A DNA stretch of 64,000 bases, from positions 12,793 through 76,792 of the forward strand of contig JAADGS010000092.1 in assembly GCA_013152275.1 (NCBI GenBank). Direction: 5' to 3'. This document shows, piece by piece, positions 1,318 to 58,160 of the stretch. The DNA comes from Actinomycetota bacterium (lineage in GTDB: Bacteria; Actinomycetota; Acidimicrobiia; Spongiisociales; UBA4744). Under the pieces are notes generated by a model. The model made no database searches and was not told where the DNA came from. It saw only the letters and a list, made by a program, of their open reading frames with translations. Positions within the stretch are counted from its first letter, which is position 1, and every line of letters starts with the position of its first letter. The translations under genes and the position numbers were made by a program.

Positions 1318-3477
1318 GTGATGACCCGATTGAGATATCTCGTGGTCGGCGTTCTCGGATTGTTCCTCATTCTGTTGGTCGCAGGGTGCGACAACAAGGC
1401 CGCCGAGACGACCACGACGACGAGTCCACCACAGACCACAACCACAGCCACCGCTACCACAGCCCCGCCGACCGTCGAGCCGGCGGTGGAGATACCATTC
1501 CTCGCCGACTGGCAGGGATCCGGCCACGCCGATGCGAGCGCCGAGGCGTTCAATCACTGGAACGATGACGACCCGGCGATCATCCCCGCCCGCTGCGCGA
1601 AGTGTCACAGCACACCGGGCTTCCAGGACTACGTCGGCGCCGACGGCACCGCATTCGGGACGGTCGATGCCGACGCTGCGATCGGGACGACGGTGGAGTG
1701 CGTCGCCTGTCACAACGACGCGACCCTGAAACTCGACCATGTGACGATGCCTTCCGGTGTCGAACTCACCGGCCTCGACGCCGAGGCGCGATGCATGACC
1801 TGCCACCAGGGTCGGGCATGGAAGGGCACCGTGGACGAAGCCGTTCAGGGAATCGATGAGGACACGGTCTCCGAAGACCTCGGCTTCATCAACATCCACT
1901 ACTTCGCAGCGGCAGCGACCAAGTACGGGACCGTGACGAAGGGCGGCTACGAATACGACGGCAAGTCGTACGACGCGGTCTTCGCACATGTGGACGGATA
2001 CTCGACGTGTATCCAGTGCCACGATCAACACACGCTCGAACTCAAGGTCGACGAGTGCTCGACGTGCCACGCGGGAGTGTCGTCGGTCCAAGACCTCGAG
2101 AACATCCGGATGGCCGGCTCGGAAGTCGATTACGACGGCGATGGCGACATCACCGAAGGCATCGCCTCCGAGATCGAAGGTCTGCAAGAGAAGCTGTACG
2201 CAGCAATCCAGGCGTACGCCTCGTCCAAGGTCGGCACACCGATCGTCTACGCCGCAGAGTCGTACCCGTACTTCTTCGTCGACACGAACGCGAACGGCGA
2301 CGCCGACGGGGAGGAAGCCTCCTACGGCAACAAGTATGCGAGCTGGACCCCGCGACTCCTGAAGGCGACCTACAACTATCAGGTCTCCATCAAGGATCCC
2401 GGCGGGTATGCCCACGGCGGCAAGTACATCATCGAGCTGCTCGTCGACTCGACCGACGACCTGAACTCGGTGCTGTCATCGCCGATCGCCATGACCGACG
2501 TGCACCGCATCGACGCCGGCCACTTCGCAGGATCCGAAGCGGCGTTCCGCCACTGGGACAAAGACGGTGAGATCCCGGCGTCGTGCAGCAAGTGCCACTC
2601 GGCGACCGGTCTCCCGCTCTTCTTCAAAGAAGGCGTCACGATCGCGCAGCCGGTTTCCAACGGCCTCTTGTGCTCGACCTGCCACAGCGATCTGTCGACC
2701 TTTGATCGATACGAGGTTGCTTCGGTGACCTTCCCGAGTGGGGCAAAGATCGACAGCGGCAGCAACAACATGAACCTGTGCATGACGTGTCACCAAGGCA
2801 GGGAGTCGACCGTGTCGGTCGACAAGCTGATCGGCGACACGAAGGCCGATGTGGTGAGCGACTCGCTCCGGTTCCTGAACGTGCACTACTTCGCGGCCGG
2901 AGCGACGATCTTCGGAGACCAGGCGAAGGGCGCCTACGAGTACGCGGGCAAGACCTATGTCGGCTACAACGAGGATCACCCGCTGAACCAGTGCACCCAG
3001 TGTCACGATCAGCACGCCCTGGAAGTCCGGGTCGACAAGTGCTCGGCCTGTCACGGCACGGTCGCCACCGAGGACGACCTGCACGCCATCCGCATGTCCA
3101 GCATCGACTACGACGGTGACGGCGACACGACCGAAGGCATGTGGGACGAGATCCAAACCATGCGGGCCGACCTGCTCGCCGCCATCCAGGCCTACGCGGC
3201 CAAGACGGCGGGGGCCGAAGCGATCGTCTACGACCCGAACTCGTACCCGTACTACTTCATCGACACGAACGGCGATGGAGTGGCCGGCGCCGACGAGGCG
3301 AACTACGGAAACCGCTACGGCACATGGACACCCCGCTTGCTGCGGGCCGCGTACAACTATCAGTACGCGACGAAGGATCCGGGCGGGTTCGCCCACAACG
3401 GCGAGTACATCGTCCAGACCCTGTACGACAGCATCAAGGACGTCGGCGGCGATGTCTCGGGGATGACCCGACCGTAG
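1318..3477 (+). CDS. Decahaem c-type cytochrome lipoprotein with internal tandem duplication (two pentahaem modules, each followed by a ~150 aa haem-free domain)
   Basis: Signal peptide with lipobox LVAGC, then a Thr/Pro-rich linker (ETTTTTSPPQTTTTATATTAPPTVEP). There are 10 CxxCH motifs: CAKCH, CVACH, CMTCH, CIQCH, CSTCH, then CSKCH, CSTCH, CMTCH, CTQCH, CSACH. The two halves are clearly paralogous (e.g. ...RCMTCHQGRAWKGTVDEAV... versus ...LCMTCHQGRESTVSVDKL...; YPYFFVDTNANGD versus YPYYFIDTNGDGV). RBS GGAGG lies 8 nt upstream of the ATG. Confidence 0.9.
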   Translation: MMTRLRYLVVGVLGLFLILLVAGCDNKAAETTTTTSPPQTTTTATATTAPPTVEPAVEIPFLADWQGSGHADASAEAFNHWNDDDPAIIPARCAKCHSTPGFQDYVGADGTAFGTVDADAAIGTTVECVACHNDATLKLDHVTMPSGVELTGLDAEARCMTCHQGRAWKGTVDEAVQGIDEDTVSEDLGFINIHYFAAAATKYGTVTKGGYEYDGKSYDAVFAHVDGYSTCIQCHDQHTLELKVDECSTCHAGVSSVQDLENIRMAGSEVDYDGDGDITEGIASEIEGLQEKLYAAIQAYASSKVGTPIVYAAESYPYFFVDTNANGDADGEEASYGNKYASWTPRLLKATYNYQVSIKDPGGYAHGGKYIIELLVDSTDDLNSVLSSPIAMTDVHRIDAGHFAGSEAAFRHWDKDGEIPASCSKCHSATGLPLFFKEGVTIAQPVSNGLLCSTCHSDLSTFDRYEVASVTFPSGAKIDSGSNNMNLCMTCHQGRESTVSVDKLIGDTKADVVSDSLRFLNVHYFAAGATIFGDQAKGAYEYAGKTYVGYNEDHPLNQCTQCHDQHALEVRVDKCSACHGTVATEDDLHAIRMSSIDYDGDGDTTEGMWDEIQTMRADLLAAIQAYAAKTAGAEAIVYDPNSYPYYFIDTNGDGVAGADEANYGNRYGTWTPRLLRAAYNYQYATKDPGGFAHNGEYIVQTLYDSIKDVGGDVSGMTRP

Positions 3478-3495
3478 GGACCGCAACCCAAGCCG

Positions 3496-3523
3496 GAGGG
3501 GCCCGACGTATGTCGGGCCCCTC
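3496..3523. terminator. Perfect GC-rich hairpin (12-bp stem GAGGGGCCCGAC / GTCGGGCCCCTC, 4-nt loop) downstream of the decahaem gene; likely intrinsic (I-shaped) terminator
   Basis: Inverted repeat read directly from the sequence, 19 nt after the stop codon. There is no T-tract, as is common in high-GC actinobacteria. Confidence 0.6.
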
Positions 3524-3716
3524 TCGACAGGGAGCGCTCCCCTCCACGGGACGCCTCTCTCGTTCCATCCTTATGGTTCCGGTCCTGTGTCATCAGCACA
3601 CCTGATCAGCCTCTCTGATATACGACCATGAATGGGTCTTTTGGCCCTAGCCCAACGGGACGTCGACAAGAGAGTATCCCTTACAGATCCTGAGGATCGG
3701 AAGGAGGGACGGAGAT

Positions 3717-4913
3717 ATGAAACGATCCCTACTGCTGCTGGTAGTCGTTTTTGCAATGATTCTCGCCGCGTGTGCCGGACCGGCCGGCGACACAGGACCT
3801 GCAGGGCCCGCGGGGCCCCAAGGACCTGCCGGGCCGGCCGGACCTGCCGGACCCGCGGCGCCTGCCGCCGCAACCGTCGGAGCCGACTACGTGGGAACAC
3901 AGACGTGTGCCGGATGCCATCCGGACAACGCCGAGAAGTTCCTCAAGTCGGGACATCCGTACAAACTGAACAAGGTGGTCGACGGACAACCGCCGACGTA
4001 CCCGTTCACCGAGATCACCCAGGTTCCTGAGGGGTACACCTGGGACGACATCACGTACGTGATCGGTGGGTACAACTGGAAGGCCCGTTTCATCGGACTC
4101 GACGGTTTCATCATCACCGGCGACGAAAACGCCAAAACGCAGTACAACCTGCCGAACCCGACCATCGGGCTCGGAGACAATTGGGTCGCGTACCACGCGG
4201 GTCAACAGAAGGCGTATGACTGCGGTCCTTGTCATACGACGGGATACCGGCCCGAAGGCCATCAGGATGGACTCGAGGGGATTATCGGAACCTGGGCGGA
4301 GCCCGGGATCCAGTGTGAAGAGTGCCACGGCCCTGGAAGCAACCACGTGGCGGATCCGTATGGAGTCGCGATGAAGGTGGACGTGTCGTCCGAGGCATGT
4401 ACTTCATGTCACCGACGCGGGTCGACCCTGACGATCGACGCCAAAGGAGGATTCATCAAGCACCACGAGCAGGGTGAGGAGCTGTTGCAGACAAAGCACG
4501 CGTCCCTCAGCTGTGTCACGTGCCATGATCCGCATACAGGCGTCATCGCGCTACGTAAGGCCGGAGAGGACTTCGCAGCGAACTTCCCGTGTCAAACCTG
4601 CCACGAGGAACAGGCCGACTACCAGAAGTCGACCGTCATGTCGGGCTTCGTCAAATGCATCGACTGTCACATGCCACGGATCGTCAAGTCCGCGGTCGGT
4701 GATCCCGCTGCATGGACCGGCGACATCCGAACACACCTGTTCGCCATCGACCCCAACCTGACCAACCAGTTCTCCGAGGACGGCTCGGTAGCCAACTCGG
4801 CGATCACGCTGGATTGGGCCTGCAAGTCGTGTCACCGTGACGGTGGTACGGCGAGCGTCAAGACGGACGAGGAACTGAAGGCGACGGCCGAGGGATACCA
4901 CTCGAAACCGTAA
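3717..4913 (+). CDS. Octahaem c-type cytochrome lipoprotein with collagen-like (GPAGP)n N-terminal linker
   Basis: Signal peptide with lipobox ILAACAG, then GPAGDTGPAGPAGPQGPAGPAGPAGPAAPAAA. There are 8 CxxCH motifs: CAGCH, CGPCH, CEECH, CTSCH, CVTCH, CQTCH, CIDCH, CKSCH. RBS GGAAGGAGG precedes the ATG. Confidence 0.9.
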   Translation: MKRSLLLLVVVFAMILAACAGPAGDTGPAGPAGPQGPAGPAGPAGPAAPAAATVGADYVGTQTCAGCHPDNAEKFLKSGHPYKLNKVVDGQPPTYPFTEITQVPEGYTWDDITYVIGGYNWKARFIGLDGFIITGDENAKTQYNLPNPTIGLGDNWVAYHAGQQKAYDCGPCHTTGYRPEGHQDGLEGIIGTWAEPGIQCEECHGPGSNHVADPYGVAMKVDVSSEACTSCHRRGSTLTIDAKGGFIKHHEQGEELLQTKHASLSCVTCHDPHTGVIALRKAGEDFAANFPCQTCHEEQADYQKSTVMSGFVKCIDCHMPRIVKSAVGDPAAWTGDIRTHLFAIDPNLTNQFSEDGSVANSAITLDWACKSCHRDGGTASVKTDEELKATAEGYHSKP

Positions 4914-4936
4914 TACGCCTGAACTACCAGCAGCTC

Positions 4937-4965
4937 GAGAGGCCCGGGCAAGCCCCGGGCCTCTC
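4937..4965. terminator. GC-rich hairpin (GAGAGGCCCGGG-caagc-CCCGGGCCTCTC) followed by a T-rich stretch, downstream of the octahaem gene; likely intrinsic terminator
   Basis: 12-bp perfect inverted repeat read from the sequence, 24 nt after the stop codon. Confidence 0.6.
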
Positions 4966-5070
4966 GCTTCTTCCACCTCCCCCTCGCTACGCTCACGTGG
5001 GAGCGCCACGAGACCTCGGGAGCGTCTGGCGCTCGGCGCGTCCTCCGGCGGGAACGCAACCCTCGATCCG

Positions 5071-8569: not shown

Positions 8570-10135
8570 TCAATACCCCTGCGCCGGGGTGTGACACTGC
8601 GTGCACTTGATCTGTTTCCACGCGTCTCCGATGTCGACAGGATGCTGGAAGGCAAGACCGGCCACGCTGTTCTCGATGTCGGCGAGGTTGTCCGAGGGGC
8701 CCTGGGCGGCGATCGTATGACACGAGTTGCACGAAGAGGAGATCCGTGTCCCGTCATCGCTCTCCAGATCCGAGAAGTGGCACCGGAAACAGCCGTCGTT
8801 GACAAAGTGGCTGAGGTTGTCCTCGCGGGCCCGGTAGTCGGTCTTCATCTCCGGGAAGAAGTTGGCGTCGTAGATGCGCACCAGGGTGTCGGCGGCCTTC
8901 TCGACCTGGCCCTGATCCACCTTGCCGGGATACTGCTTCGCGTAGTAGGCCAGGAGCCCGGACCGGATCGCCTCGTCTGCCTCCGGTTTCGTGTCATATG
9001 GCGCGTTGAGCAAGGTCAGCCCCTGCCAGCGGACGAACGGGAGGTCCTTGGAGATCGTGCCCTTGGTCATCTCGAGGTTGATCGCCGTCGCCGGAGGGAG
9101 GAAGTCGTGACTGGGCCGGTTGTGGCAGTCCATGCAGTCCAAGATACGAACTTCGACGTCGGGCGAATCGGGATCGACCACCGCATCGGGACGCTTGAAG
9201 ACGGTGACCTTCCCCGTCTCGCCGTCCGTGAACCGCACCCAGATCATCTGCTGGCGCTTCTTGTCGGTCGTCACGTATTCGATCTTGTTCTCGCCGAGCA
9301 TGTGCCAGTGGATGCCCTCCTGCTTGCCGGTTCGGGGGTTCCCCCCACCGACTTTCATGAGCAGACTGATCGTCCACGGCGAGTTCGCCTCGTTGGTCCG
9401 GTAGTACGTTTTCGTGACGAGCTTCTCGCCATAGAACTGATCGGGCCAGTGGCATCCCTCACAGGTCTGTTGAGCAGGTCGCAGACTCGTCACCGGTGTC
9501 GGCACGGGACGGTCGTACGAGTTGGTCAGCACCGCCACCACCTGGCGGATACCGTCGATCTTGGCGCGCACGAAGAACGATGCGCCGGGGCCGATGTGGC
9601 ACTCTGCACAGGCGACGCGAGCGTGCGGAGACTGCTGATAGGTGACCCACTGTGGGTTCATCACCGTGTGGCACGCCTCCCCGCAGAACGTTGCGGAGTC
9701 GGTGACTTCGTACCCCTTGTAACCACCCCAGGCGACCGTGCCGAGCAACATCGCCGTGAGGATGCCGAACAGCGCAAGGGAGCGCATGTACCGGGGGTTC
9801 GACGGCTCGAACCGAAGGTTGAACCGGACGTGTTCTCCGCGCCGGCGAGCCCTGACGACCTGGATGCGGATGGCGAGCAGGAAGAGGATGAGGCCGAGCA
9901 GAACCACCGAGGGAAAACCGATGAATGTGACGAGTCCTCGATACGGGTTGCCGGCGGGTGAACTCAGGTCGACGAATGCGAGGATGGCGAACCCGAGTAT
10001 CCCGGCGACGACGAGCGCGCCGCCCACCGCAGCCAAAGGATGGCGGTAGAGGCTCCTGCCCTCGACCGCCTCGGCCTTGGTCTCGCTCTCCCTGTCACTC
10101 ACGCTCGATCCCTCCTCAACCGATCTCTGATCCAC
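8570..10135 (-). CDS. Membrane-anchored heptahaem c-type cytochrome (N-terminal TM helices plus 7 CxxCH); ImcH-like putative quinol oxidase
   Basis: Two N-terminal hydrophobic helices (ALVVAGILGFAILAFV; VTFIGFPSVVLLGLILFLLAI; SLALFGILTAMLLGTVAW). The 7 CxxCH motifs are CGEACH, CAECH, CEGCH, CMDCH, CFRCH, CNSCH, CTQCH. It is the last gene of the minus-strand cytochrome operon. Confidence 0.85.
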   Translation of the reverse strand: MDQRSVEEGSSVSDRESETKAEAVEGRSLYRHPLAAVGGALVVAGILGFAILAFVDLSSPAGNPYRGLVTFIGFPSVVLLGLILFLLAIRIQVVRARRRGEHVRFNLRFEPSNPRYMRSLALFGILTAMLLGTVAWGGYKGYEVTDSATFCGEACHTVMNPQWVTYQQSPHARVACAECHIGPGASFFVRAKIDGIRQVVAVLTNSYDRPVPTPVTSLRPAQQTCEGCHWPDQFYGEKLVTKTYYRTNEANSPWTISLLMKVGGGNPRTGKQEGIHWHMLGENKIEYVTTDKKRQQMIWVRFTDGETGKVTVFKRPDAVVDPDSPDVEVRILDCMDCHNRPSHDFLPPATAINLEMTKGTISKDLPFVRWQGLTLLNAPYDTKPEADEAIRSGLLAYYAKQYPGKVDQGQVEKAADTLVRIYDANFFPEMKTDYRAREDNLSHFVNDGCFRCHFSDLESDDGTRISSSCNSCHTIAAQGPSDNLADIENSVAGLAFQHPVDIGDAWKQIKCTQCHTPAQGY

Positions 10136-10201
10136 GCTAGTCGATCGGCCCTCACCGGCCTCACGACCGACCGTCTCTTCTTGTCGAACCTGTTCCTCGA
10201 A

Positions 10202-11461
10202 TCAGCCTTGCGGCGCGCCGGCGCCGATCCATGCCTTCACCAACGCCAGGTCCTCGTCCGTGAACTTGCCGAAATGCGACCCGTCCCCCACTTTGACGAT
10301 CACATGGCTCGCATCCGCATCACCGGCCACGAACCCGGGCTCACCACTATCACCCCCGGCCAGCAACCCCGCATACGACGTAACGTCCAGACCGGAGGCC
10401 GGCGCACTGCCACCGTGACATGACCCGCACGCCGCCTCGAACACCGCCGCCACACCGGAGTTCCATGTCACGCCGGCAGAAGCCGCCGTGGTCGAGGGCG
10501 TCGCAGCCGACGTGGTCGCCGACGCGGCCGCGGTCGTCGTCGGAGCCGCGGTCGTCGGTGGAAGGGTCGTCGTGGGAGGCGTGGTCGACGGTGGAAGGGT
10601 CGTCGTCGGCAGCGGCGTGTAGATGGGTCCGGCGAGCGGCGAAGGCGCGACGGTCGTGATCGCCGTCTGCTCGAACGTCACGAACTCGTAGACCCCCATC
10701 AGCATCACGGCGGCCAGGACGGTGAAGGCCGGCCAGTACCTGAGCGCTCGGTTGCGTCGCTCCTCGGGATCGGTCTCGATCCGATCCGTTTCCGCGTCGA
10801 TCGTGGCCAGTTCGAGCGGGTGGAGCTCTTTCATCTGGGCACGCGACAGGTACCCGGTGAAGATCGAAGGGTTGAAGTGCCGCCAATGGACGTCGTAGGA
10901 GTGCCAGACGATGATGGCCAGCACGGCGAGGACCGCCTCCCAACCGTGGGCCGCCTTGGCCGCCGGCACGAAGACCCCCGGGAGGAACCGGGTGGTGGCG
11001 ATCGGATTCCAGAGCATGAAGCCGGTCACCGCCATCAGTACGGTGCCCCACACCAGCGACCAGTACTCCATCTTCTCGCCGACCGTATACCGGCCCTCGG
11101 GAGGCGGGCCCGACGCCAAACCGAGGTTGAACCTGATCCAGCCCCACGCGGCCGACAGGTCCGCCTTCCCCGGGATCAGCGAATGGGGTCTGCGGAGCAC
11201 GAAGCGCTTGTAGCCCAGCACACCGAGGTGGTACACGAGCGAGAGCAGCAGAATGGTTGCGAGAATGTGGTGGATTCTGCGGGTGTAGTCGATCCCTCCG
11301 AAGAGCCCGATGATCCAGTCCGAGAACCAGCGGTCGGCGTATTTCTGCACCAGTCCGGTGATCGCCAGACCGGTGAACGTGATGACCTGGACGGCGTGCT
11401 CGATCCGGTCCGACACCGTGAACCTCAGGATCTTCTCGTCGGGACGCGTCGTCTCAGTCAT
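10202..11461 (-). CDS. Dihaem cytochrome b (FdnI/HydC/CybH-like membrane domain) fused via a Pro/Thr-rich linker to a C-terminal monohaem cytochrome c domain
   Basis: The N-terminal ~250 aa has 4-5 TM helices with conserved His residues (RIEHAVQV, RRIHHILATI, AAHGWEAV...VWHSYDVHWRH). The linker reads PLPTTTLPPSTTPPTTTLPPTTAAPTTTAAASATTSAATPSTTAASAG. The C-terminal domain carries CGSCHG. The start overlaps the nonahaem gene end by 8 nt. Confidence 0.85.
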   Translation of the reverse strand: MTETTRPDEKILRFTVSDRIEHAVQVITFTGLAITGLVQKYADRWFSDWIIGLFGGIDYTRRIHHILATILLLSLVYHLGVLGYKRFVLRRPHSLIPGKADLSAAWGWIRFNLGLASGPPPEGRYTVGEKMEYWSLVWGTVLMAVTGFMLWNPIATTRFLPGVFVPAAKAAHGWEAVLAVLAIIVWHSYDVHWRHFNPSIFTGYLSRAQMKELHPLELATIDAETDRIETDPEERRNRALRYWPAFTVLAAVMLMGVYEFVTFEQTAITTVAPSPLAGPIYTPLPTTTLPPSTTPPTTTLPPTTAAPTTTAAASATTSAATPSTTAASAGVTWNSGVAAVFEAACGSCHGGSAPASGLDVTSYAGLLAGGDSGEPGFVAGDADASHVIVKVGDGSHFGKFTDEDLALVKAWIGAGAPQG

Positions 11462-12554
11462 GTCGTCGCCTCCTGAGGCGAGCGGCGAGCCTTCTCCGCA
11501 CGTCGAGTCCCACGGCGAGGAGCATCGCGCCGATCACGAGCGGGATGAGGATCTTGTAGAACATGTTCACCCAGTACACGAGCGGGGCCTCGGTGGTGCT
11601 CGGCGCATAGTGACTCAGCCATGCGTCGGGGAAGTTCGCCGTGGCATCCGGGTGGCACCGCCGGCACGTGCCGAGCAGATTCTTCTTGTACACGGAGCTG
11701 TCCGTGTCGCTGGGCGCCTTGATGTCATGAACACCGTGACAATCGACGCACACGGGCTTGTTCGTGTCCTGACCGGGAGCCAGCTTCTCGAAGAGAACGA
11801 CCGTCGTGCCGTGAAAGTCCGACAGGTACGAACTGAACACGTTCGTGGAGATGCCGTACTTGTCCATCAGGGCCTTGTTGGCGTGACAGTCCGCGCAGAT
11901 CTGCGGCGAGAACAGCCGGAACGGCGAATCGTCATGCGGACCCTTCACGTCATGGACGCCGTGACAGTCCGTGCAGGTCGGGACGTCCGGGTTGCCGGTC
12001 GTGAGCGCCTCCCCGTGCACGCTGTCCTCGTAGGCGTTGTAGATCTCCGAATGACATTTCCTGCACATCAGCGGAATGTTGGTTCGAGGCTCGCCGGGCG
12101 GTTGGACGTTGTGGGAACCGTGGCAGTCGGTGCAGACGGCCGCCTCCGTGACGCCGGCCTGGCGTGCGAGCTCGTGGTCGCTGTCGCGAGTCCCCGTGTA
12201 CTCGGAGTAGTGGCACGTCGCACAGGACGTATACATCTGTAGCGTGAAGCCGCGGCGGCTCTCGGCGGTGATCGGAGCGTGCGGATACGTGGAGATGTCC
12301 GTGTGACAGAGAACGCACGCCACATCGAGCTTGCCGTGAACCGAATCGGCGTACTCGTGACCGTCGACGGCAATGTCGAGCGTCTCCCCCGAGGGCAGTG
12401 GTATTCCCAGCGAGCTTCCCTCGTGACAGGAGAGACAGTAGGAGTTGTCCCACCGAGGGTCGGTCTGCGCGGCTGCCCGAGATTGCCCACCGAGCAGGAT
12501 CGCCGTACCGATGATCAGTGCACCGAGTACAACGATCCTTCTACATCTTTGCAT
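11454..12554 (-). CDS. Nonahaem c-type cytochrome, secreted, with a C-terminal transmembrane anchor
   Basis: Sec signal peptide (cleavage near AAAQT). The 9 CxxCH motifs are CLSCH, CVLCH, CATCH, CTDCH, CRKCH, CTDCH, CADCH, CVDCH, CRRCH. The C-terminal hydrophobic helix ILIPLVIGAMLLAVGL is followed by RRRLAARLRRRRHD. Confidence 0.9.
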   Translation of the reverse strand: MQRCRRIVVLGALIIGTAILLGGQSRAAAQTDPRWDNSYCLSCHEGSSLGIPLPSGETLDIAVDGHEYADSVHGKLDVACVLCHTDISTYPHAPITAESRRGFTLQMYTSCATCHYSEYTGTRDSDHELARQAGVTEAAVCTDCHGSHNVQPPGEPRTNIPLMCRKCHSEIYNAYEDSVHGEALTTGNPDVPTCTDCHGVHDVKGPHDDSPFRLFSPQICADCHANKALMDKYGISTNVFSSYLSDFHGTTVVLFEKLAPGQDTNKPVCVDCHGVHDIKAPSDTDSSVYKKNLLGTCRRCHPDATANFPDAWLSHYAPSTTEAPLVYWVNMFYKILIPLVIGAMLLAVGLDVRRRLAARLRRRRHD

Positions 12555-14783: not shown

Positions 14784-16433
14784 TTGTTGCTGCTCGTGAG
14801 CAACTCCGCCTACAGAGCGACCGCCGTGCTCGTAGCCGCCCTCGCCCGCCTGGGTCTGCGGCATGCGTGCCTCACGCCGGGATCGAGGAACACGCCGCTG
14901 TCACTCGCATTCGCCGAGCACCCCGACGTCACCGATTGGATCCACCACGACGAGCGGTCGTCGTCCTTCTTCGCCCTCGGGCTCGCCAAGGCGACGAGGG
15001 CACCGGTTGCCGTGGTGACCACCTCCGGAACCGCCGCTGCGGAGCTCTTCCCTGCCGCCGTGGAAGCCCGCCACGGGACGGTGCCCCTCCTGCTGATCAC
15101 CGCGGATCGTCCCCCGGAACTTCGCGGTATCGGCGCTCCCCAGACGATCGACCAGGTCGGCATGTTCGGGGAGATGGTGCGCCGGTCGACCGACGCGATG
15201 CTCACCGAACTGGGTCCGGACGGAATCACCGATCTGGCCGTCGCGACGTGGAACGAGGCGATCCGGCGCCCGGGCGGCCCGGTCCACCTCAATCTCGGCT
15301 TCCGCGAACCGTTCGTTCCCACCGATCTCACCGTTGCCGAGGTCGACGTGCCCGCGGCCGACCCTGTCGGAAAGACGCCGGATGCGGGTTCCCTCCGGAC
15401 GGCTGCAGCGCTGCTGTCGGGCAAGCGAGCGCTCGTCGCCGCCGGCCCCCTCGACCATCCGGGTTTCACCGATGCCGTCACCGCACTGGCCGCCCAGGCC
15501 GGCTGGCCGATCCTGGCCGATCCGCTCAGCCAGCTGCGCGCAGGCCCCCACGATCGATCGCACGTGGTCACCTCCGGGGACGCACTCTTTCGCACGGACC
15601 GCATCCCGGGACCGATCGAAGCCGTGTTGCGCTTCGGGGCGCCTCCGACCTCCAAGGCGTTCATGACCTGGCTGGAGGGACATCCGCACGTCCCCCAAGT
15701 CGTCGTGGACGAGGTCGGCGGCCGGGACCCTTCCCGGACGGCACGGCTGATGATCACCGCCGATCCCGTCGAGTTCGCCGAAGCCCTGTCCGTCGAGCCT
15801 GTGGCCGCGGACTGGACGCACGCCTGGATGGATGCCGATGGACACGCCCGGGACGCCCTGGCGGGGATGGTGTTCCCCTCCGGGCCTGCCGTCGTGCAGA
15901 CCCTGGCGGAGCGACTCCCGGCCCGCTCGAACCTCTACGTCGCCTCCTCGATGCCGGTGAGAGATGTCGACCTGTTCTTCCCCTCGATCGACCGGCCGAT
16001 CCGACTGCTGGCGAACCGCGGCGTCAACGGCATCGATGGTCTCGTCTCTTCGGGTCTGGGCGCCTCCGCCACCGGCACGACGACGTTTGTCCTCACCGGC
16101 GACTTGTCCGCTCTGCACGACCTGGGGGCGCTCGCAACCGCTGCACGGCTTCGCCTGCCGGTCACGATCGTCGTGGTGAACAACGACGGCGGTGGCATCT
16201 TCTCGTTCCTCCCGCAGGCGAAGCTGCCGCGCCATTTCGAGCGGGTGTTCTCCACCCCGCACGGTCTGTCCTTCGTGCCCGTGGCCGAGGCGTTGGGTCT
16301 GCGCGCCGTCCACGTCGACCGCCGCGATCGGTTCGTTTCGGCGCTCGGTGAACCGGGGCCGTTGCTCATCGAGGTGACGACCGATCGCGATGCGAACGTC
16401 CGGATCCACGAGGAGGCGCTCGCGAGACTCTGA
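14784..16433 (+). CDS. menD: 2-succinyl-5-enolpyruvyl-6-hydroxy-3-cyclohexene-1-carboxylate synthase (ThDP-dependent)
   Basis: N-terminus ...NSAYRATAVLVAALARLGLRHACLTPGSRNTPL aligns with MenD N-termini. The ThDP-binding region GDLSALHDLG...VVVNNDGGGIFSF is present. The longest ORF starts at TTG 14784; GTG at ~14796 is an alternative. Confidence 0.85.
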   Translation: MLLLVSNSAYRATAVLVAALARLGLRHACLTPGSRNTPLSLAFAEHPDVTDWIHHDERSSSFFALGLAKATRAPVAVVTTSGTAAAELFPAAVEARHGTVPLLLITADRPPELRGIGAPQTIDQVGMFGEMVRRSTDAMLTELGPDGITDLAVATWNEAIRRPGGPVHLNLGFREPFVPTDLTVAEVDVPAADPVGKTPDAGSLRTAAALLSGKRALVAAGPLDHPGFTDAVTALAAQAGWPILADPLSQLRAGPHDRSHVVTSGDALFRTDRIPGPIEAVLRFGAPPTSKAFMTWLEGHPHVPQVVVDEVGGRDPSRTARLMITADPVEFAEALSVEPVAADWTHAWMDADGHARDALAGMVFPSGPAVVQTLAERLPARSNLYVASSMPVRDVDLFFPSIDRPIRLLANRGVNGIDGLVSSGLGASATGTTTFVLTGDLSALHDLGALATAARLRLPVTIVVVNNDGGGIFSFLPQAKLPRHFERVFSTPHGLSFVPVAEALGLRAVHVDRRDRFVSALGEPGPLLIEVTTDRDANVRIHEEALARL

Positions 16434-16436
16434 TCT

Positions 16437-16493
16437 CCCCGTTCTCGTGACGGTTGAGCAGGATTATTCCCGTCAACCGTCACGAGAACGGGG
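16437..16493. repeat. REP-like palindromic element copy 1 (21-bp arms CCCCGTTCTCGTGACGGTTGA / TCAACCGTCACGAGAACGGGG, 15-nt loop)
   Basis: Read directly from the sequence. It lies between convergent menD (stop 16431-16433) and menF. The right arm encodes the last residues and the TGA of menF. Confidence 0.8.
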
Positions 16494-17685
16494 GGATTTG
16501 GAGGATGTCGAGCAGCCCCCGCAGTTTCGCCTCGGTCTCCGCCACTTCGGCCACCACGTTCGAGTCCCGCACGATCCCGGCACCCGCGTACACGCGTGCC
16601 TCGTGGTTCCGAAGAAGGGCGCAGCGCAGGGCCACGGCCGCCTCCCCATCGCCGGAGGCGTCGGTCCATCCGACACCGCCCGCATACCAACCCCGATCGA
16701 TCGCTTCGACCTCTCGAATGTAGGCGAGGGCGGCGGCGGTGGGTGTGCCGCACACCGCGGGGGTCGGGTGCAGCGCCAGAGCGAGTTGGAGCACGCCCAT
16801 CGGCCTGGCGAGCAGCCCCCGGATCTCCGTCCCCAGGTGCAGGATGTTGGCGAGGCGCATGACCGTCGGACCGCCGGGAACCGACAGCTCCGACGTCAAC
16901 GGACCCAGCACGCGGACGATGTCATCGACGACGAACTGATGCTCCCTACGATCCTTCGCGCTCTCCAGCAGCGTCCGCGCCGACTCCTCGTCCTCGATCG
17001 AGCCCCTGCCACGCACCGCGCTGCCCGCCAGCGGAAACGATCGGATCGATGCCCCCCACCGTTCCACGAGCAACTCCGGGCTGGCACCCACGAACGCACT
17101 CCCATTCTCCACCCACCCGTACGCGAACGCGTCCGGAAACCGTTCCCGGAGCAAGGCCACGACGTCGAACGGCCGGATGTCGTCGAAGGCCAGCATCACC
17201 GAACGCGCCAACACGACCTTGGAGAGAAGCCCGGCTTCGATCGTCTCGCGTGCCCGTTCGACCATGTCCGCCCACACGTCGGATTCGGGATCCCTGGCCG
17301 TCACCCGGCCGACCGGCACGAGCGTCTCTCCCGGGTGATCGAGCCGACGGAGCATCGCCGGCATCTCCTCCTGGCCCGGAGCGATGCGAAGACGGCCTCC
17401 TCCCTCTCCCTTGACCAGGGTCACCGCCGGCAGGACGACGCTTCCGGTCTTCTTGGAACCGTCGAACGGAAACGCGAAGAACAGCCTGCCCTCGGAGGGA
17501 GGCCGAGCCAGGAGATCATCGCTGCGCCAGGCCACACCGACCCCGACTGCTTCCTCCCGACCTCCGAAGAAGAAGACGGGAGCGCCGGCGCGCGACGCTG
17601 CGCGGGCGAGATCGATCGGTTGCACCGCGCATGGCACCGACAGGCCCGCCGCCAGGTCGGTGCAGACATCGTTGGGAAAAAGCAC
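16480..17685 (-). CDS. menF: Isochorismate synthase (menaquinone-specific)
   Basis: Chorismate-binding enzyme motifs (PELLVER..., SFPLAGSAVRG, GWYAGGVGW). The longest ORF extends to 17793 and would overlap the upstream hydrolase by ~100 nt. A GTG at ~17685 (VLFPNDV) gives a 10-bp spacer and is preferred. Confidence 0.8.
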   Translation of the reverse strand: MLFPNDVCTDLAAGLSVPCAVQPIDLARAASRAGAPVFFFGGREEAVGVGVAWRSDDLLARPPSEGRLFFAFPFDGSKKTGSVVLPAVTLVKGEGGGRLRIAPGQEEMPAMLRRLDHPGETLVPVGRVTARDPESDVWADMVERARETIEAGLLSKVVLARSVMLAFDDIRPFDVVALLRERFPDAFAYGWVENGSAFVGASPELLVERWGASIRSFPLAGSAVRGRGSIEDEESARTLLESAKDRREHQFVVDDIVRVLGPLTSELSVPGGPTVMRLANILHLGTEIRGLLARPMGVLQLALALHPTPAVCGTPTAAALAYIREVEAIDRGWYAGGVGWTDASGDGEAAVALRCALLRNHEARVYAGAGIVRDSNVVAEVAETEAKLRGLLDILQIPPFS

Positions 17686-20389: not shown

Positions 20390-21511
20390 ATGCATGTGGA
20401 CCGACCGACGATCCCGGCCTCGCGCCTCGCCGATCTCATCAGTGCCGCCGCGGCGGTGACCGGACAAACCGAGCTGACGGCCGTGCTGGAAACCGTTGTC
20501 GCAACGGCCAAGGAACTCACCGGTGCGCCGTTCGGTGCGCTCGGTGTCGTCAGCGAGAAAGGGCAGCTGATCCAGTTCGTCCATCAGGGCGTCCCGGAGG
20601 AGATCGTCGAGATGATCGGCGGCCCGCCGGAGGGCAAGGGGCTGCTCGGCGCAGTCACGTGGCAGCCCGACCCTATCCGGCTCGACCGCACGCAGACGCA
20701 CCCACGAGCGACCGGGTTTCCCGATCATCACCCCAAGTTCGAAGGTTTTCTCGGCACGTCGATCCGTATCGGCGAAGACATCTTCGGCAATCTCTACCTG
20801 GGAGCGTCCGACGGCGGCTTCACCGAGCAGGACGAGACGCTGATTCGCGCGCTGGCCCTCATCGCGGGGTCCGCCATCTCCACGATCCGCGTTCAGGCGC
20901 GTCTGCGCAGGGCAGCGGTCCTCGAAGACCGCCAGCGCATCGCCCGGGATCTGCACGACTCCATCATCCAGGATCTCTTCGCCGTCGGTCTGTCACTCCA
21001 GGCGTTGACCGCCAAGCTGGTCGACCAGGAGATGCGGGAGCGCCTCGAAGAAGCCGCTTCGCACCTCGATGCTTCGATCACCTCGTTGCGACGGTTCATC
21101 TTCGATCTCCGCCCCCCGACGTTGGGCGCGCGCAACCTCAAGGACGAACTCTCCGAGCTGCTGGGGCGGCTCGCCGTCCCCTACGAGGCGAGCATCGGGA
21201 TCGGCGTCACCGGGCCGGTCGACGACCTGCCCAATGAGATCATCGAAGACACGCTCCACATCATCCGGGAGGCGGTGAGCAACGCGTTGCGGCACTCCGG
21301 AGCGGATGTCGTGAGTGTCTCGGTGAGCCGCGGCATCGATCGGCTGGTCCTCGCTGTCTCCGACCGTGGGAAGGGGTTCGATCTCGAAACCGTCACACGG
21401 GGAATGGGTCTCGACAACATCCGCAGCCGTGCCGAAACGGCGGGTGGAGAAGCCGACATCACCAGCCGTCCCGGTGGGGGGACGACCATCCGGGTCGTGC
21501 TTCCCCTGTAG
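20390..21511 (+). CDS. GAF-domain sensor histidine kinase (HisKA_3/NarX-type, DosS/DosT-like)
   Basis: N-terminal GAF domain. H-box ARDLHDSIIQDLFAVGL. HATPase_c N, G1 and G2 boxes (EAVSNALRHSGA, DRGKGF, GMGLDNIRSRAETAGG). It is divergent from the response regulator. Confidence 0.85.
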   Translation: MHVDRPTIPASRLADLISAAAAVTGQTELTAVLETVVATAKELTGAPFGALGVVSEKGQLIQFVHQGVPEEIVEMIGGPPEGKGLLGAVTWQPDPIRLDRTQTHPRATGFPDHHPKFEGFLGTSIRIGEDIFGNLYLGASDGGFTEQDETLIRALALIAGSAISTIRVQARLRRAAVLEDRQRIARDLHDSIIQDLFAVGLSLQALTAKLVDQEMRERLEEAASHLDASITSLRRFIFDLRPPTLGARNLKDELSELLGRLAVPYEASIGIGVTGPVDDLPNEIIEDTLHIIREAVSNALRHSGADVVSVSVSRGIDRLVLAVSDRGKGFDLETVTRGMGLDNIRSRAETAGGEADITSRPGGGTTIRVVLPL

Positions 21512-21575
21512 GCGGACCGACTGCGCACGGACCATCTCGCGGAGTACGATTGCCCTGAACCAAGTAAAGGACGCC

Positions 21576-21833
21576 ATGCAACTCGACGAGCAATCCAAGA
21601 AGACCGTCCTTCCCCGGCTTCGCCGCATCGAAGGCCAGGTGGCCGGGATCATCCGCATGATCGAGGACGGTCGCGAATGTACCGAAATCCTCACGCAGGT
21701 GGCCGCCGCATCGAAGGCTCTCGACAAGGTCGGATTCAAGCTTCTCGCCGCCAACCTCACACGCTGCATTCTCGAAGATGCGGACTTCAAGGACACGGCT
21801 TCTCTGGAGAAGCTCTTCATGACCCTCGCCTGA
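21576..21833 (+). CDS. CsoR/RcnR/FrmR-family (DUF156) transcriptional repressor; candidate Cys-Asn-Cys ligand set (CstR-like?)
   Basis: 85 aa beginning MQLDEQSKKTV, with the conserved RLRRIEGQVAGIIRMIEDGRECTEIL...ANLTRCILED. Asn sits at the position where copper-sensing CsoR proteins carry a ligand His. The longer ORF from 21366 lacks homology. Confidence 0.7.
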   Translation: MQLDEQSKKTVLPRLRRIEGQVAGIIRMIEDGRECTEILTQVAAASKALDKVGFKLLAANLTRCILEDADFKDTASLEKLFMTLA

Positions 21834-21886: not shown

Positions 21887-21960
21887 CCCACTCCAACCGT
21901 TCTCGTGACGCTTCACGGGAATAATCCGGCCCAACCGTCACGAGAACGGGGTTGGTGGGG
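21887..21960. repeat. REP-like palindromic element copy 2 (extended arms CCCCACTCCAACCGTTCTCGTGACG...CGTCACGAGAACGGGGTTGGTGGGG); loop ggaataatcc is inverted relative to copies 1 and 3
   Basis: Read directly from the sequence. It lies between the convergent csoR-like gene and the aminotransferase gene. Confidence 0.8.
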
Positions 21961-21972
21961 TCGGATGCGTCC

Positions 21973-23172
21973 TCAGGACCGCAAGAAGGCTGCAATCCCT
22001 TCCAGCAGCCGGTCGATGTCGTCCTCGTCGTTGAAGAAGTGGACACTCGCCCGAACCCCTCCGGTATCGGCGGTGTACCGCTGGGACACGAAGATCCGCT
22101 TGGCCAGCAAGAACTCGAGGCACGCGCGATCCCTGTCACGGCTCCCGAGGGAGCACGAGACGATCCCGCTGCGATGCGCCGCTTCGAACGGCGTCTCGAG
22201 TCCGACGTCCAGTCGCCTGAAACCTTCGATGAGCCGCCCACCGAGATCCCACACGCGTGCGGCCACCGCATCCATGCCGATCTCGTTGACCAGCTCGACG
22301 CTCTTCGCCAAGGCGATGCTTCCCGGATAATTGGCGGTCCCGGCGATCTCGAAACGCTTGGCATCGTCGACGAACTCGTAGGCGCGGTCAGGCGTGATGT
22401 CGGGTGTCGAGAAGTATCGACCCCAGCCACCTTCCGGCGGTTGGAGGGCCAGATAACCCCAGCTTGCCGGGTCGAGTTGGGTCAAGACCCGTTTCGAGAG
22501 GTACATGAAGCCGGTCCCCATCGGGGCGTTGAGCCATTTGTGGCCACCGGCTATGAGGAAGTCCACACCATCGAGGTCGAAGGGAACAGCGCCCGCCTGC
22601 TGGATACCGTCGACCACGAGCCACGCCCCCACCGAGTGGGCGACTTCGGCCAGGCCGCTCAGATCGATCCGATAGCCATTGCTCCACTGTGTGGAGCTCA
22701 CGACGATGGCCCGCGTGGACGGGCCCACCTTGGCGGCATAGGCATCCACGTCCGCCACGCCGTCACGATGACGTACGAACCGCAGTTCGACCCCGTTCTG
22801 CGCGGACAACTTCGCGAAGGGGATGGCCACCTGAAGGAACTCGAGATCACACATGACGATGTCGTCACCGGCCTGCCAGGGAATCGACTGGGCCGCGATA
22901 TTGAGGCCGTGGGTCGTGCTCTCGATCTGAGCGATCTGATCGACGCCACAACCGAGCATCCGGGCAACCTCTCGGGTCGCCTGCTCCCGTTGCTGATCCA
23001 TCCAGATGTGATGCTCGGTGGCGGAGTCGGCCTCCGGTCTCACCAGCCGTGACGAGAACTGCCGAACCGCTTCGTGTGCACGCCGGGGCAACAGGCTCAC
23101 ACAGGCCGCGTCGAGAAACGTCCGATCGTCAAGGCCCGGGAACTCCGCTGCAACCGACACCCAGTCTGTCAT
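21973..23172 (-). CDS. Class V (fold type I) PLP-dependent aminotransferase / cysteine-desulfurase-like enzyme
   Basis: Aminotran_5 features: the GGHKWLNAPMG PLP-lysine region and the SSTQWSNGYRID motif. Start MTDWVSV at 23172; the upstream ORF extension has no RBS context. Confidence 0.75.
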   Translation of the reverse strand: MTDWVSVAAEFPGLDDRTFLDAACVSLLPRRAHEAVRQFSSRLVRPEADSATEHHIWMDQQREQATREVARMLGCGVDQIAQIESTTHGLNIAAQSIPWQAGDDIVMCDLEFLQVAIPFAKLSAQNGVELRFVRHRDGVADVDAYAAKVGPSTRAIVVSSTQWSNGYRIDLSGLAEVAHSVGAWLVVDGIQQAGAVPFDLDGVDFLIAGGHKWLNAPMGTGFMYLSKRVLTQLDPASWGYLALQPPEGGWGRYFSTPDITPDRAYEFVDDAKRFEIAGTANYPGSIALAKSVELVNEIGMDAVAARVWDLGGRLIEGFRRLDVGLETPFEAAHRSGIVSCSLGSRDRDRACLEFLLAKRIFVSQRYTADTGGVRASVHFFNDEDDIDRLLEGIAAFLRS

Positions 23173-23347
23173 GACAATCTCCTTCGATAGCAGGTGAATC
23201 CTATCCGTTTCGTCCAAGATGAAACCCTCATGGCACGGCCGCATCGATGGCCCGTGGCCGGTGTGGACCACCCGCCCATCGGATGCAACTCGACCCGCTC
23301 GCGTCGATGCGCCGTCTCGCAGTTCCGGGCGCAACGGAACCGCCGAC

Positions 23348-56286: not shown

Positions 56287-56290
<4 letters not shown>

Positions 56291-57297
56291 CCGTGGACCT
56301 GCGCACCAGCTATCTGGGACTGGAACTGGCACATCCGATCGTGCCGTCGGCGTCTCCCGCGACGGGGACACTCGACGCTCTGCACAGGCTGGAGGCCGCA
56401 GGGGCCTCCGCGATCGTGCTCCCGTCTCTGTTCGAGGAACAGATCAAACACGAGGAAGCCGAGATCCAGCGGCTGGCGGAGTTCGCGGCCGAGAGTTTCG
56501 CCGAGGCGACGTTCGGATACTTCCCCGAGATGACGGACTACAACACGGGGCCGGGCCCGTATCTCAAACTCATACGAGACGCCAAGGCGACACTCGGGAT
56601 TCCGGTCATCGCGAGCCTGAACGGATTCTCGGCGGGAGGATGGATCGCCTACGCGAAGAAGATCCAGGATGCCGGAGCGGATGCGCTCGAACTCAACATC
56701 TATTTCGTCCCCGGCGATCCCGCCGAGCCGGGGACGGCCGTGGAGCAGCAGTATCTCGAGCTCATCCAACAGTGCAGAGAGTCGGTCGAGATCCCGATCG
56801 CCGTCAAGATCGGACCGTATTTCAGTTCGGTCGCCAACATGGTGAGCCGGATCGTCGACGCCGGGGCGGACGGCCTGGTTCTGTTCAATCGTTACATGAT
56901 GCCCGACGTCGATCTCGAGGCGTTGACCGTCACACCCGCGCTGCAGTTGTCCGACCCTTCCGAGCTGCGGCTGCCGCTGCGCTGGATAGCGCTTCTTCAC
57001 GGCAAGGTGAACGCCTCGCTCGCCCTGTCGAGTGGAGTCCATTCCGCCCAGGATGCCCTGAAGGGCCTGTTGACCGGCGCGGACGTCACCATGATGACTT
57101 CGGCGCTCCTGGATCACGGTCCCGAGTATCTGACGACGGTCATCGATGGGGTCGCACAGTGGCTCCACGAGCACGAGTACGTCTCGGTCGAGCAGGCGAA
57201 GGGCTCCCTCAGTGAGCAGGCGGCCCCGGATCCCGAAGCATTCTCCCGGTCCAGCTACATGCAGACCCTCATCAGCTACACGGGTCCGGCGGTCTGA
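56287..57297 (+). CDS. Dihydroorotate-dehydrogenase-like (PyrD class 1 fold, TIM-barrel flavoprotein) protein, coupled to PFOR
   Basis: DHO_dh-like motifs (NGFSAGG, ELNIYFVPGD, IAVKIGPY, LVLFNRY). TTG/GTG start overlapping the PFOR stop. Confidence 0.7.
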
Positions 57298-57375: not shown

Positions 57376-57436
57376 GGGACCCGCCCCATCCCGTTCTCGT
57401 GACGGTTGACGAGGATTATTCCTGTGAAGCGTCACG
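57376..57436. repeat. REP-like palindromic element copy 3 (CCCGTTCTCGTGACGGTTGA-cgaggattattcctg-TGAAGCGTCACGAGAACGGGG)
   Basis: Read directly from the sequence. It lies between the convergent pyrD-like and sdpI-like genes. Confidence 0.8.
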
Positions 57437-57470
57437 AGAACGGGGATGTTGGGTCATCCCTCACCCGCGA

Positions 57471-58160
57471 TCACGCTTCCTCACGACCTTGTTTCGACTT
57501 TCTCGGGTCGGATCGCCACACGACATAGGAGTACGGCACGCTGATCACGGTGATCCCGATCGGGCCGCCGATCACCAGCCACAGCATGACGCTCGGCCTG
57601 ACGAAGGCTCCGACGAGCATCAACGCGCCGACGGCCATGAAGAGTTTCCCTGCGAGTCGATGCGTCTTGTTCCACGAGAGGTCACTCGTCAACGTCCATG
57701 GAGTCCGCACCCCCATCAGAAAGTTGCTCTTGACCTTCGGCAGGAAGTTTCCGATCACCACGAACATCACGCCGACGAGACCGAAAGCGATGAACGAGAC
57801 ATTGACCGTCCGCCCGACGGCGGTGAACACGATGGCGGCGTGGATTCCGCCGAGGAACAGGAGGAGGACTGCCCAGATCGCGAGAAACGCCTTCCCGGAT
57901 TGGAGCAGATTGGTGCGACGCGGCTCGATCCTCGGCAGCACGGCGAACAGCGCGGCGACGCCCATCGTGACAAGCGGCATGAGGTAGAGACCTTCGAACC
58001 TTCCGCCGTACCGGTCGGGTGTGCCGTCGGGACCGAAGTGCACCGGGATCTGCGCACCCGCCGGTAGGCGTCCAGAAGCCCAAAGCGACAGGGCAAACAT
58101 GGCCGCGACAATGAGCAGACTCCAGAGCATTCCCGTTCGAATCGTTCGCTTGTCGATCAT
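57471..58160 (-). CDS. SdpI/YhfL-family membrane protein (DUF1648; immunity-protein-like)
   Basis: 229 aa with 6 predicted TM helices. It has a 4-nt overlap with the upstream ArsR-type regulator, the typical sdpR-sdpI arrangement. Confidence 0.7.
   Translation of the reverse strand: MIDKRTIRTGMLWSLLIVAAMFALSLWASGRLPAGAQIPVHFGPDGTPDRYGGRFEGLYLMPLVTMGVAALFAVLPRIEPRRTNLLQSGKAFLAIWAVLLLFLGGIHAAIVFTAVGRTVNVSFIAFGLVGVMFVVIGNFLPKVKSNFLMGVRTPWTLTSDLSWNKTHRLAGKLFMAVGALMLVGAFVRPSVMLWLVIGGPIGITVISVPYSYVVWRSDPRKSKQGREEA

Follow-up and report, generated by a model that had tools for sequence, protein, structure and literature searches.

Solo copies of a REP-like palindrome family at convergent gene ends in an Acidimicrobiia genome and their possible connection to DUF559 nuclease genes

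In a 64,000-nucleotide stretch of an Acidimicrobiia genome (contig JAADGS010000092.1; the whole stretch is called the window below) three palindromes of very similar sequence lie between converging genes, and one of them reaches into a coding sequence. This raises the question what these palindromes are, how they came to these sites and what they do there. We consider it rather probable that the three are solo copies of a REP-like family of the Acidimicrobiia, that they likely act as bidirectional 3′-end hairpins and that they are probably recognised by a DUF559 protein. The copies and their neighbours are as follows:

14784–16433, plus strand: MenD-like TPP enzyme (Pfam TPP_enzyme_N/M_2/C), synteny kept in relatives
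16433–16497, no strand assigned: copy 1, core 16441–16489, loop GGATTATTCC on the plus strand
16480–16482, minus strand: stop codon of menF, held in the right arm of copy 1
16480–17685, minus strand: MenF-like isochorismate synthase, 401 aa (Pfam Chorismate_bind)
21366–21833, plus strand: CsoR-type metal-sensing repressor, longest ORF (Pfam Trns_repr_metal), orthologs in L028/L029
21884–21962, no strand assigned: copy 2, core 21899–21947, loop GGATTATTCC on the minus strand
21973–23334, minus strand: class-V aminotransferase, longest ORF (Pfam Aminotran_5), ortholog L028:4513–5712, convergent with csoR
56287–57297, plus strand: dihydroorotate-dehydrogenase-like gene (Pfam DHO_dh), upstream of copy 3
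57386–57448, no strand assigned: copy 3, core 57393–57441, loop GGATTATTCC on the plus strand
57471–58160, minus strand: SdpI/DUF1648 membrane protein (Pfam SdpI, DUF1648), convergent with the DHO_dh-like gene

All three copies have in common a near-identical core, GTTCTCGTGACG-N25-CGTCACGAGAAC, which measures 49 nt from GTT to AAC in each of them. The foot consists of 12 conserved nucleotides, GTTCTCGTGACG pairing with CGTCACGAGAAC, and the stem is extended beyond the core by a C-rich 5′ flank and a G-rich 3′ flank. The apex varies by subfamily and is GGA-TTAT-TCC in the window type; the core length is 48–50 nt across every subfamily. The window contains the 14-mer CCGTTCTCGTGACG exactly six times, namely as the two arms of three palindromes (16439–16491, 21897–21949, and 57391–57443), and with up to two mismatches it is found nine times against 1.97 expected, a count that none of 100 shuffles reached. 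The near identity of the three palindromes, proposed in a first-pass annotation of this DNA, is thereby confirmed. An inverted-repeat search gave for the palindromes arms of 25 nt with 96% complementarity and 15 nt between them, of 30 nt (80%), and of 21 nt (90%). Searching the window with a profile built from 18 family members yielded exactly these three copies and zero diverged extras. Copies 1 and 3 have the plus-strand loop GGATTATTCC and also the apex GGA-TTAT-TCC on this strand; in copy 2 the plus strand reads GGAATAATCC and the apex sequence is found on the minus strand, so that the loop of this copy is indeed inverted, as had been noticed before. Copy 2 also has an additional outer palindrome, GACCCCACTCCAACC/GGTTGGTGGGGTC.

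The gene map of the window was derived from codon usage and checked with Pfam for about 55 genes. The element occupies three of the approximately five convergent junctions and none of the approximately 45 tandem or divergent ones (hypergeometric p about 5e-4, our own arithmetic), and one convergent junction, 43277/43306, has no element. Pfam supports the pairs MenD/MenF, CsoR/aminotransferase, and DHO_dh-like/SdpI, and with them the first-pass statement that every copy lies between converging genes. At other loci most copies are likewise convergent or within 20 nt of a stop codon, with exceptions in tandem or upstream contexts. Thus the family is biased to convergent gene ends. The orientation of the loop is independent of the direction of the nearest gene.

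Copy 1 is intimately connected with its neighbours. The menD stop codon (16431–16433) adjoins the left arm and lies 7 nt before the core, and the right arm, CCGTTCTCGTGA, encodes the final residues ..PFS and the TGA stop of MenF. The minus strand reads ATC CCC CCG TTC TCG TGA, that is ..IPPFS*, which is the very C-terminus of the database protein P0001; window MenF and P0001 are 100% identical over 401 aa. The claim that the repeat supplies the end and the stop codon of menF is therefore correct. The longest MenF ORF has 437 aa and a wrong start codon; the database protein has 401 aa. The true start of csoR is probably near 21576 because its orthologs have 85 aa.

Some further observations on the window may be mentioned here. 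Two clusters of multihaem c-type cytochromes (1318–4913 and 8570–12554) with MtrC/MtrF-like, NapC/NirT, cytochrome c3/c7, and cytochrome b561 fusion domains are situated beside the menaquinone genes, and a mannosylglycerate synthase gene is found at 61280–62488. These cytochrome clusters and the synthase gene suggest an organism which is capable of extracellular electron transfer and uses mannosylglycerate as a compatible solute. An inverted repeat at 3774–3847 (37-nt arms, 70% complementary, no spacer) is part of the multihaem cytochrome gene 3717–4913 and probably represents repetitive coding sequence, not a structural element.

How far is the family distributed? Scanning one genome per species (185,579 species) with the pattern GTTCTCGTGACG-N15-35-CGTCACGAGAAC returned 10 loci with exact arms, all in six MAGs of Acidimicrobiia or unclassified actinobacteria; by our own arithmetic about 0.04 such loci are expected by chance in 596 Gb. 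Among the genomes scanned the family is confined to Acidimicrobiia. Two of the loci, from ‘Bacterium BMS3Bbin02’, share the apex type of the window copies, and the remaining ones have ~70% GC and GC-rich sequence in place of the apex. In these ~70% GC relatives a 30-nt half-unit, headed by the 12-nt foot, is often repeated directly 2–4 times and then inverted 1–3 times, with unequal unit number on the two sides, giving nested long hairpins (L006:4562–4731, L005:4462–4571, L010:4808–4917, and arrays in L002 and L007). A metagenome scan keyed to the apex contributed 11 true members of the GGATTATTCC-loop subtype from marine-sediment and hydrothermal assemblies, besides six chance hits, and viral contigs scanned with both patterns gave zero matches. 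With homologous copies at unrelated loci in at least six MAGs and on 11 metagenome contigs, the element is clearly not confined to the three sites of the window, and the notion of a dispersed palindromic family holds for other Acidimicrobiia as well. The copy number of hundreds genome-wide that the first-pass annotation had expected finds no such backing, as the scan of 185,579 species gave just the 10 exact-arm loci, only 1–2 per MAG; extrapolated from the window, where 3 copies in 64 kb correspond to about 1 per 20 kb, the number would be in the tens to low hundreds.

The hairpin family is apparently undescribed so far. Literature searches for the motif returned primers only and nothing on Acidimicrobiia palindromes or on REPIN/RAYT in Actinobacteria. 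Rfam gave zero matches for the whole window at gathering thresholds and, at E≤1 for three loci, only spurious matches of miRNA precursors to a different hairpin. The source of these spurious matches is a 48-nt perfect palindrome at a convergent junction (L016:1436–1483, CCC-GTTCTGGCGTCCAATAACGCACAATTGTGCGTTATTGGACGCCAGAAC-GGG), which shares the style of foot and flank and has a different interior. Another locus contains a 176-nt direct repeat (L013:3554–3729 and 4796–4971, 90% identical, 1242 nt apart, the second unit after the next gene) in which the final 115 nt of pth, the gene for peptidyl-tRNA hydrolase, are joined to the element; this repeat may be a segmental duplication or flanking DNA that was transferred together with the element.

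RNAalifold predicts a single long hairpin for the family. On the structure that we specified, pairing was counted for 21 distinct copies: 86.9% of the cells are paired, against 41–49% when the partner is slid, and in 31 cells both sides are changed. The covariation or the share of paired cells seen here is attained by no more than 1–2 of 500 column shuffles. Pair 24/66, for example, is CG 11 times and UA 10 times, and pair 26/64 is CG in 8, GC in 4, and UA in 3 cases. The GTT/AAC foot, the GTGACG/CGTCAC segment, and the apex are nearly invariant, an invariance partly forced by the search patterns. Judged from the aligned sequences, compensatory changes maintain the pairing of the stem; covariation alone is no proof of an RNA function because processes or repair at the DNA level can keep a palindrome complementary. 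The copies of the window fold as RNA with −49 to −59 kcal/mol on either strand (z −5 to −11) and as DNA with −26 to −31 kcal/mol; for copy 1 the values are −58.6/−54.6 kcal/mol (z about −10.6) and −30.7 kcal/mol, respectively.

A canonical intrinsic terminator consists of a GC-rich stem–loop with a U-tract directly behind it. In the window copies the hairpin is present and the U-tract is missing: neither a T-tract nor an A-tract follows the stem on either strand, and a scan for the terminator consensus flagged none of the three copies, whose flanks read GGGG../..CCCC. Termination activity is uncertain because there is no T-tract. Of the earlier idea of a bidirectional terminator, the stable hairpin on both strands stands, and the canonical terminator is not supported. 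As the copies lie between convergent genes and fold with −49 to −59 kcal/mol in either transcript, the role of a bidirectional 3′-end hairpin is nevertheless the most likely one, and from the folding predictions the copies may function as terminators or mRNA stabilisers.

The history of copy 1 can be followed at the menF/menD junction. MenF homologs of at least 72% identity terminate in ..PFS*, ..PFL*, or ..PL*, the more distant ones stopping earlier, and the element of copy 1, intact or decayed, is present in every relative that reaches this identity. The junction has the following states:

L042, outgroup (62% identity): TAG, 13-nt spacer, CTA; no element
L031/L032: element intact
L028–30 (BMS3Abin02): left arm shortened to CCCTTGTGACG, apex altered
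L033/34: right arm decayed, now containing the menD stop codon
L044/45: left arm intact, 5-nt apex deletion, right arm truncated

Since the outgroup site is empty and the relatives within the clade carry the element, these junctions point to a single ancestral insertion: copy 1 appears to have been inserted once in the ancestor of the clade, replacing the end of menF. After insertion it was inherited vertically and decayed in three of the five lineages. As these three lineages let the menF/menD copy decay, copy 1 is not under strong selection; the arm encoding PFS* was kept despite decay elsewhere in the copy. On the menF strand the tetraloop is TTAT in L031 and ATAA in the window. This flip between orthologs is either a small inversion or two A↔T substitutions, and total mismatch counts do not separate the two.

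Copy 2 has a different record. In its ortholog (L028:5738–5786) the 53-nt core is identical at 51 of 53 positions, both differences being in the loop, the flanks on both sides are unalignable, and the fourfold synonymous sites of the adjacent genes are 76–83% identical. Taken together these values argue that copy 2 is either constrained or homogenised. Orthologous copies last over about 15–28% protein divergence. The site of copy 3, the 3′ end of the DHO_dh-like gene, is taken in L033/34 by an unrelated palindromic repeat family, GACCCCCTCCGTCCTCGGC ... GCCGAGGAC, present as several half-units downstream of the gene (L033:1–240, L034:1–160). Convergent gene ends in this clade seem to have been colonised by several unrelated hairpin families.

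A candidate partner of the family is encoded in relatives. In L002 and L007 two hairpin arrays 1 kb apart surround a gene whose product combines an AbiEi_4 wHTH with a DUF559/MTES_1575 (Vsr-like nuclease) domain; the gene is intact in L007 and frameshifted in L002. Its orthologs (58–100% identity) are always located between a SnoaL-like and an acyl-CoA dehydrogenase gene, and hairpins of the window family are found on both sides of the DUF559 gene in L002, L007, L035, L036, and L037–40. The stop codon of the DUF559 gene lies inside an arm (..TTC TCG TGA), with the same codons that end the MenF of the window. The window-type profile matches the L036 flank over its full length (E=4.5e-6), and the remaining matches of this profile in 74 kb of DUF559 loci are all at DUF559 flanks. 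In addition, at each of five independent DUF559 loci across Actinomycetota a pair of homologous palindromes, with a sequence peculiar to that locus, brackets the gene; these are the strongest inverted repeats of the respective locus:

L041/L047, T2SSE locus: palindrome with foot GTTTCGGGGCG, 50 nt
L049, coaE/uvrB locus: palindrome with foot GACTTTCTTGC, 50 nt
L050, Tsukamurella: palindrome of 42 nt
L051, Arthrobacter: palindrome of 57 nt
L055, Arthrobacter: palindrome of about 56–66 nt

The Tsukamurella and Arthrobacter palindromes also occur solo, far from any DUF559 gene, and one of them (L052) lies between convergent genes. Two genuine AbiEi/AbiEii loci, taken as controls, have no bracketing hairpins, and a partial match in Nonomuraea has none. 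Because hairpins of the family bracket a DUF559 gene and paralogs of this gene have cognate palindromes together with solo copies, the family is probably recognised, and possibly spread, by a DUF559 protein. The proposed cassette, a DUF559 gene with homologous palindromes of ~42–57 nt on both sides, is thus found in relatives and not inside the window. For the subfamily of the window the link rests on hairpin homology, as the 64-kb window and ~150 kb of loci of this subfamily contain no DUF559 gene, transposase, or integrase; here the proposal that a DUF559 protein recognises or spreads the copies is at its weakest. Among the papers searched, none connects DUF559 proteins with flanking repeats.

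The cassettes themselves have some further features. Twice the DUF559 cassette is inverted relative to its neighbours between orthologous loci (L037 versus L036/L035/L007, and L041 versus L047), which would fit recombination between the inverted palindromes on its two sides. Only one cassette has a long direct repeat at its flanks: in L002 a perfect 18-bp repeat, GGCGGCCCGCGGGTAGCG, surrounds the unit array–DUF559–array (L002:965–982 and 2195–2212) and corresponds to the 3′ end of the SnoaL-like gene, and L007 has a weaker version of 10–12 bp. The L002 repeat may represent a long duplication of the target, or else a ribosome-binding region that was kept for the acyl-CoA dehydrogenase gene downstream. 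When DUF559 proteins were compared with plasmids by tblastn, few full-length actinobacterial examples were obtained, and a second query gave only short DUF559-only proteins of other phyla. Three records of Tsukamurella tyrosinosolvens NCTC13231 which are labelled as plasmids 9, 12, and 22 (L050, L052, L053) carry nrdF, pntB, and TrmH; with these housekeeping genes aboard they resemble fragments of a chromosome, so that the plasmid label should be read with caution. For many close DUF559 homologs the only source is a contig of 1–2 kb, roughly gene-sized, as would be expected if the flanking repeats break metagenome assemblies.

REP-type repeats, which usually exceed 100 copies per genome and are extragenic, are known, like the RAYT enzymes dedicated to them, essentially from Proteobacteria. 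Our family shares with these systems the short extragenic palindromes, the compensatory stem changes, the bias to gene 3′ ends, the clustered arrays in some genomes, and a single-copy, vertically inherited nuclease-type gene between cognate, usually inverted palindromes with solo copies elsewhere. It differs from them by its single 49-nt hairpin, where REPs of 20–35 nt are paired into REPINs, by the bracketed gene, which codes for a wHTH and DUF559 (Vsr-like PD-(D/E)xK) protein and not for an HUH Y1 transposase, by a copy number of seemingly tens at most instead of hundreds, and by Actinomycetota as host phylum. The REP/REPIN–RAYT systems of Gammaproteobacteria have been described (Nunvar et al. 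2010, PMC2817692; Bertels & Rainey 2011, PMC3116915), and by definition a REP is an imperfect palindrome of ~20–40 nt whose 5′ foot bears the conserved head GT(A/G)G (PMC2817692). The elements studied here are palindromes which are extragenic or at gene ends; their core has 48–50 nt, and their foot GTTCTCGTGACG follows a C-run and lacks a conserved GTAG or GTGG. That they are classical REPs or REPINs which owe their mobility to a RAYT (HUH Y1 transposase) gene at another place in the genome is decidedly unlikely. The extragenic position with the bias to 3′ ends, the compensatory changes, and the direct-then-inverted arrays of the GC-rich relatives, which are reminiscent of BIMEs, would fit, but the foot begins with GTTCTC, RAYTs are reported from Proteobacteria only (PMC2817692), and no Y1_Tnp gene is present among the about 55 genes of the window or among the genes between paired copies. 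A cognate RAYT, for which the first-pass annotation had advised a search of the genome, was not found within the 64-kb window; in relatives it is a wHTH–DUF559 gene that the family brackets. Bacterial MITEs, for example, Correia (Neisseria), ERIC/IRU, RUP, and Nezha, are small, non-coding, dispersed inverted repeats, often located at gene ends and sometimes co-opted as terminators or changing gene termini. As internally deleted IS derivatives they have terminal inverted repeats and target-site duplications. The present element is similarly small, non-coding, and dispersed, its whole unit is an inverted repeat, and one datable insertion has remodelled a gene end. However, it is much shorter (about 49–85 nt) and entirely one hairpin, no direct repeat of at least 3 nt was detected at symmetric offsets of 0–25 nt in 20 copies, and no parent IS with its terminal inverted repeats was found in the window or the fetched loci. 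The one gene that has such ends, DUF559, is of no known transposase family. According to Pfam none of the about 55 window genes is a transposase, integrase, or nuclease gene, and the genes between paired copies in L001, L012, and L013 are housekeeping genes only, without a transposase. Given also the persistence of orthologous copies over the protein divergence mentioned above, a MITE, which had been considered for these palindromes before, is a most improbable explanation.

It could also be asked whether the hairpins need any mobility at all. Bidirectional intrinsic terminators are symmetric GC-rich hairpins that serve two convergent transcripts, and the convergent position and the great stability on both strands are what one would expect if ordinary terminators had evolved in place, without mobility or a cognate protein. 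This is very improbable, as a sequence of 49 nt including the unpaired loop recurs at unrelated loci and in different species, for which shared ancestry is already strongly supported; moreover, the A/U tracts are lacking, the convergent junction of the outgroup and the junction 43277/43306 of the window do without the hairpin, and some copies are in tandem or upstream contexts. A strand-specific structured RNA, that is an sRNA or a cis-regulatory 3′-UTR element with a functional conserved loop GGAUUAUUCC, would explain that the loop and the apical stem are nearly invariant in the 21 copies, but can hardly be right: the loop is oriented regardless of which way the nearest gene runs and is flipped between the window and L031, unrelated GC-rich apices replace the loop in other Acidimicrobiia, and there is no Rfam match. 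The AbiEi antitoxin is a wHTH protein which binds inverted repeats in its own promoter, and the DUF559 proteins have an AbiEi_4-type N-terminal wHTH and a palindrome just upstream of their gene. On this basis the palindromes could be immobile double-stranded sites, either operators of a regulon or chromosome-organising sites, for a conserved DNA-binding protein of the Acidimicrobiia, with the DUF559 wHTH protein as candidate binder. The conservation of the 12-nt foot across the class with variable interiors, the arrays with a period of 30 nt in GC-rich relatives, and the own palindrome of each DUF559 paralog, one being 22–60 nt upstream of the gene start, agree with this proposal, which is unlikely all the same: the solo copies are at 3′ ends and convergent junctions and not at promoters, the compensatory changes keep the pairing and not a fixed half-site, and the half-sites are 37 bp apart from centre to centre. 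Compared with AbiEi, the DUF559 genes have a second homologous palindrome at the 3′ end which overlaps the stop codon, solo palindromes exist at unrelated loci, and the examined AbiEi/AbiEii loci have no flanking hairpins. The hairpins at the DUF559 flanks themselves could be operators and terminators and not the ends of a mobile element. Inverted pairs of the uptake sequences DUS and USS double as terminators in Neisseriaceae and Pasteurellaceae. They resemble our family as taxon-wide 10–12-mers in inverted pairs downstream of genes; the 12-mer of the window, however, is never a singleton and has a density of about 1 per 20 kb against about 1 per kb, and we have no evidence of competence here, so that DUS-like uptake sequences were rejected for the lack of singletons. 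Integron attC sites (the order of the core sites is reversed, AAC...GTT being expected), CRISPR (no spacers), and LexA, CRP, and parS boxes (wrong spacing or sequence) were rejected as well.

For the copies within the 64-kb window no features of a MITE, a RAYT-mobilised REP, or a canonical terminator were thus found, and we return to solo members of a REP-like family. We conclude that copies were inserted at unrelated intergenic sites, that menF received a new 3′ end by at least one such insertion, and that the inserted copies were then vertically inherited, some nearly unchanged and others decaying, whereby the orientation of the apical tetraloop can differ between orthologs. A copy between convergent genes would serve as a bidirectional 3′-end hairpin which protects the transcript ends and/or hinders read-through without a canonical U-tract. 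The wHTH–DUF559 protein would recognise, and possibly spread, the hairpin family in a similar way as REPs relate to RAYTs. By this analogy one may go a step further and propose for Actinomycetota a REPIN/RAYT-like system in which a single-copy, vertically inherited wHTH–DUF559 nuclease (Vsr-fold PD-(D/E)xK) disperses or maintains its cognate palindromes of ~50 nt, the elements of the window being solos. This extension is tentative, and we rather doubt it at present.

Even without the link to DUF559 the menF case illustrates that the insertion of a repeat can rewrite the C-terminus and the stop codon of a protein and then persist by long inheritance. In practice the family can be used as a marker for Acidimicrobiia contigs and is a likely cause of assembly breaks. 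The arrangement of palindrome, gene, and palindrome with scattered solo copies is REP/RAYT-like and is found here in a different phylum and with another putative enzyme. Should the link be functional, this would be a second, independent case of a nuclease that is maintained together with its own repeat family, it would give a role to a widespread domain so far without known function, and it would explain the strong hairpins at convergent gene ends in high-GC Actinomycetota without canonical U-tract terminators. If the REPIN/RAYT-like proposal is true, it would provide a function for the large actinobacterial DUF559 family and establish a new class of domesticated nuclease with associated hairpin repeats.
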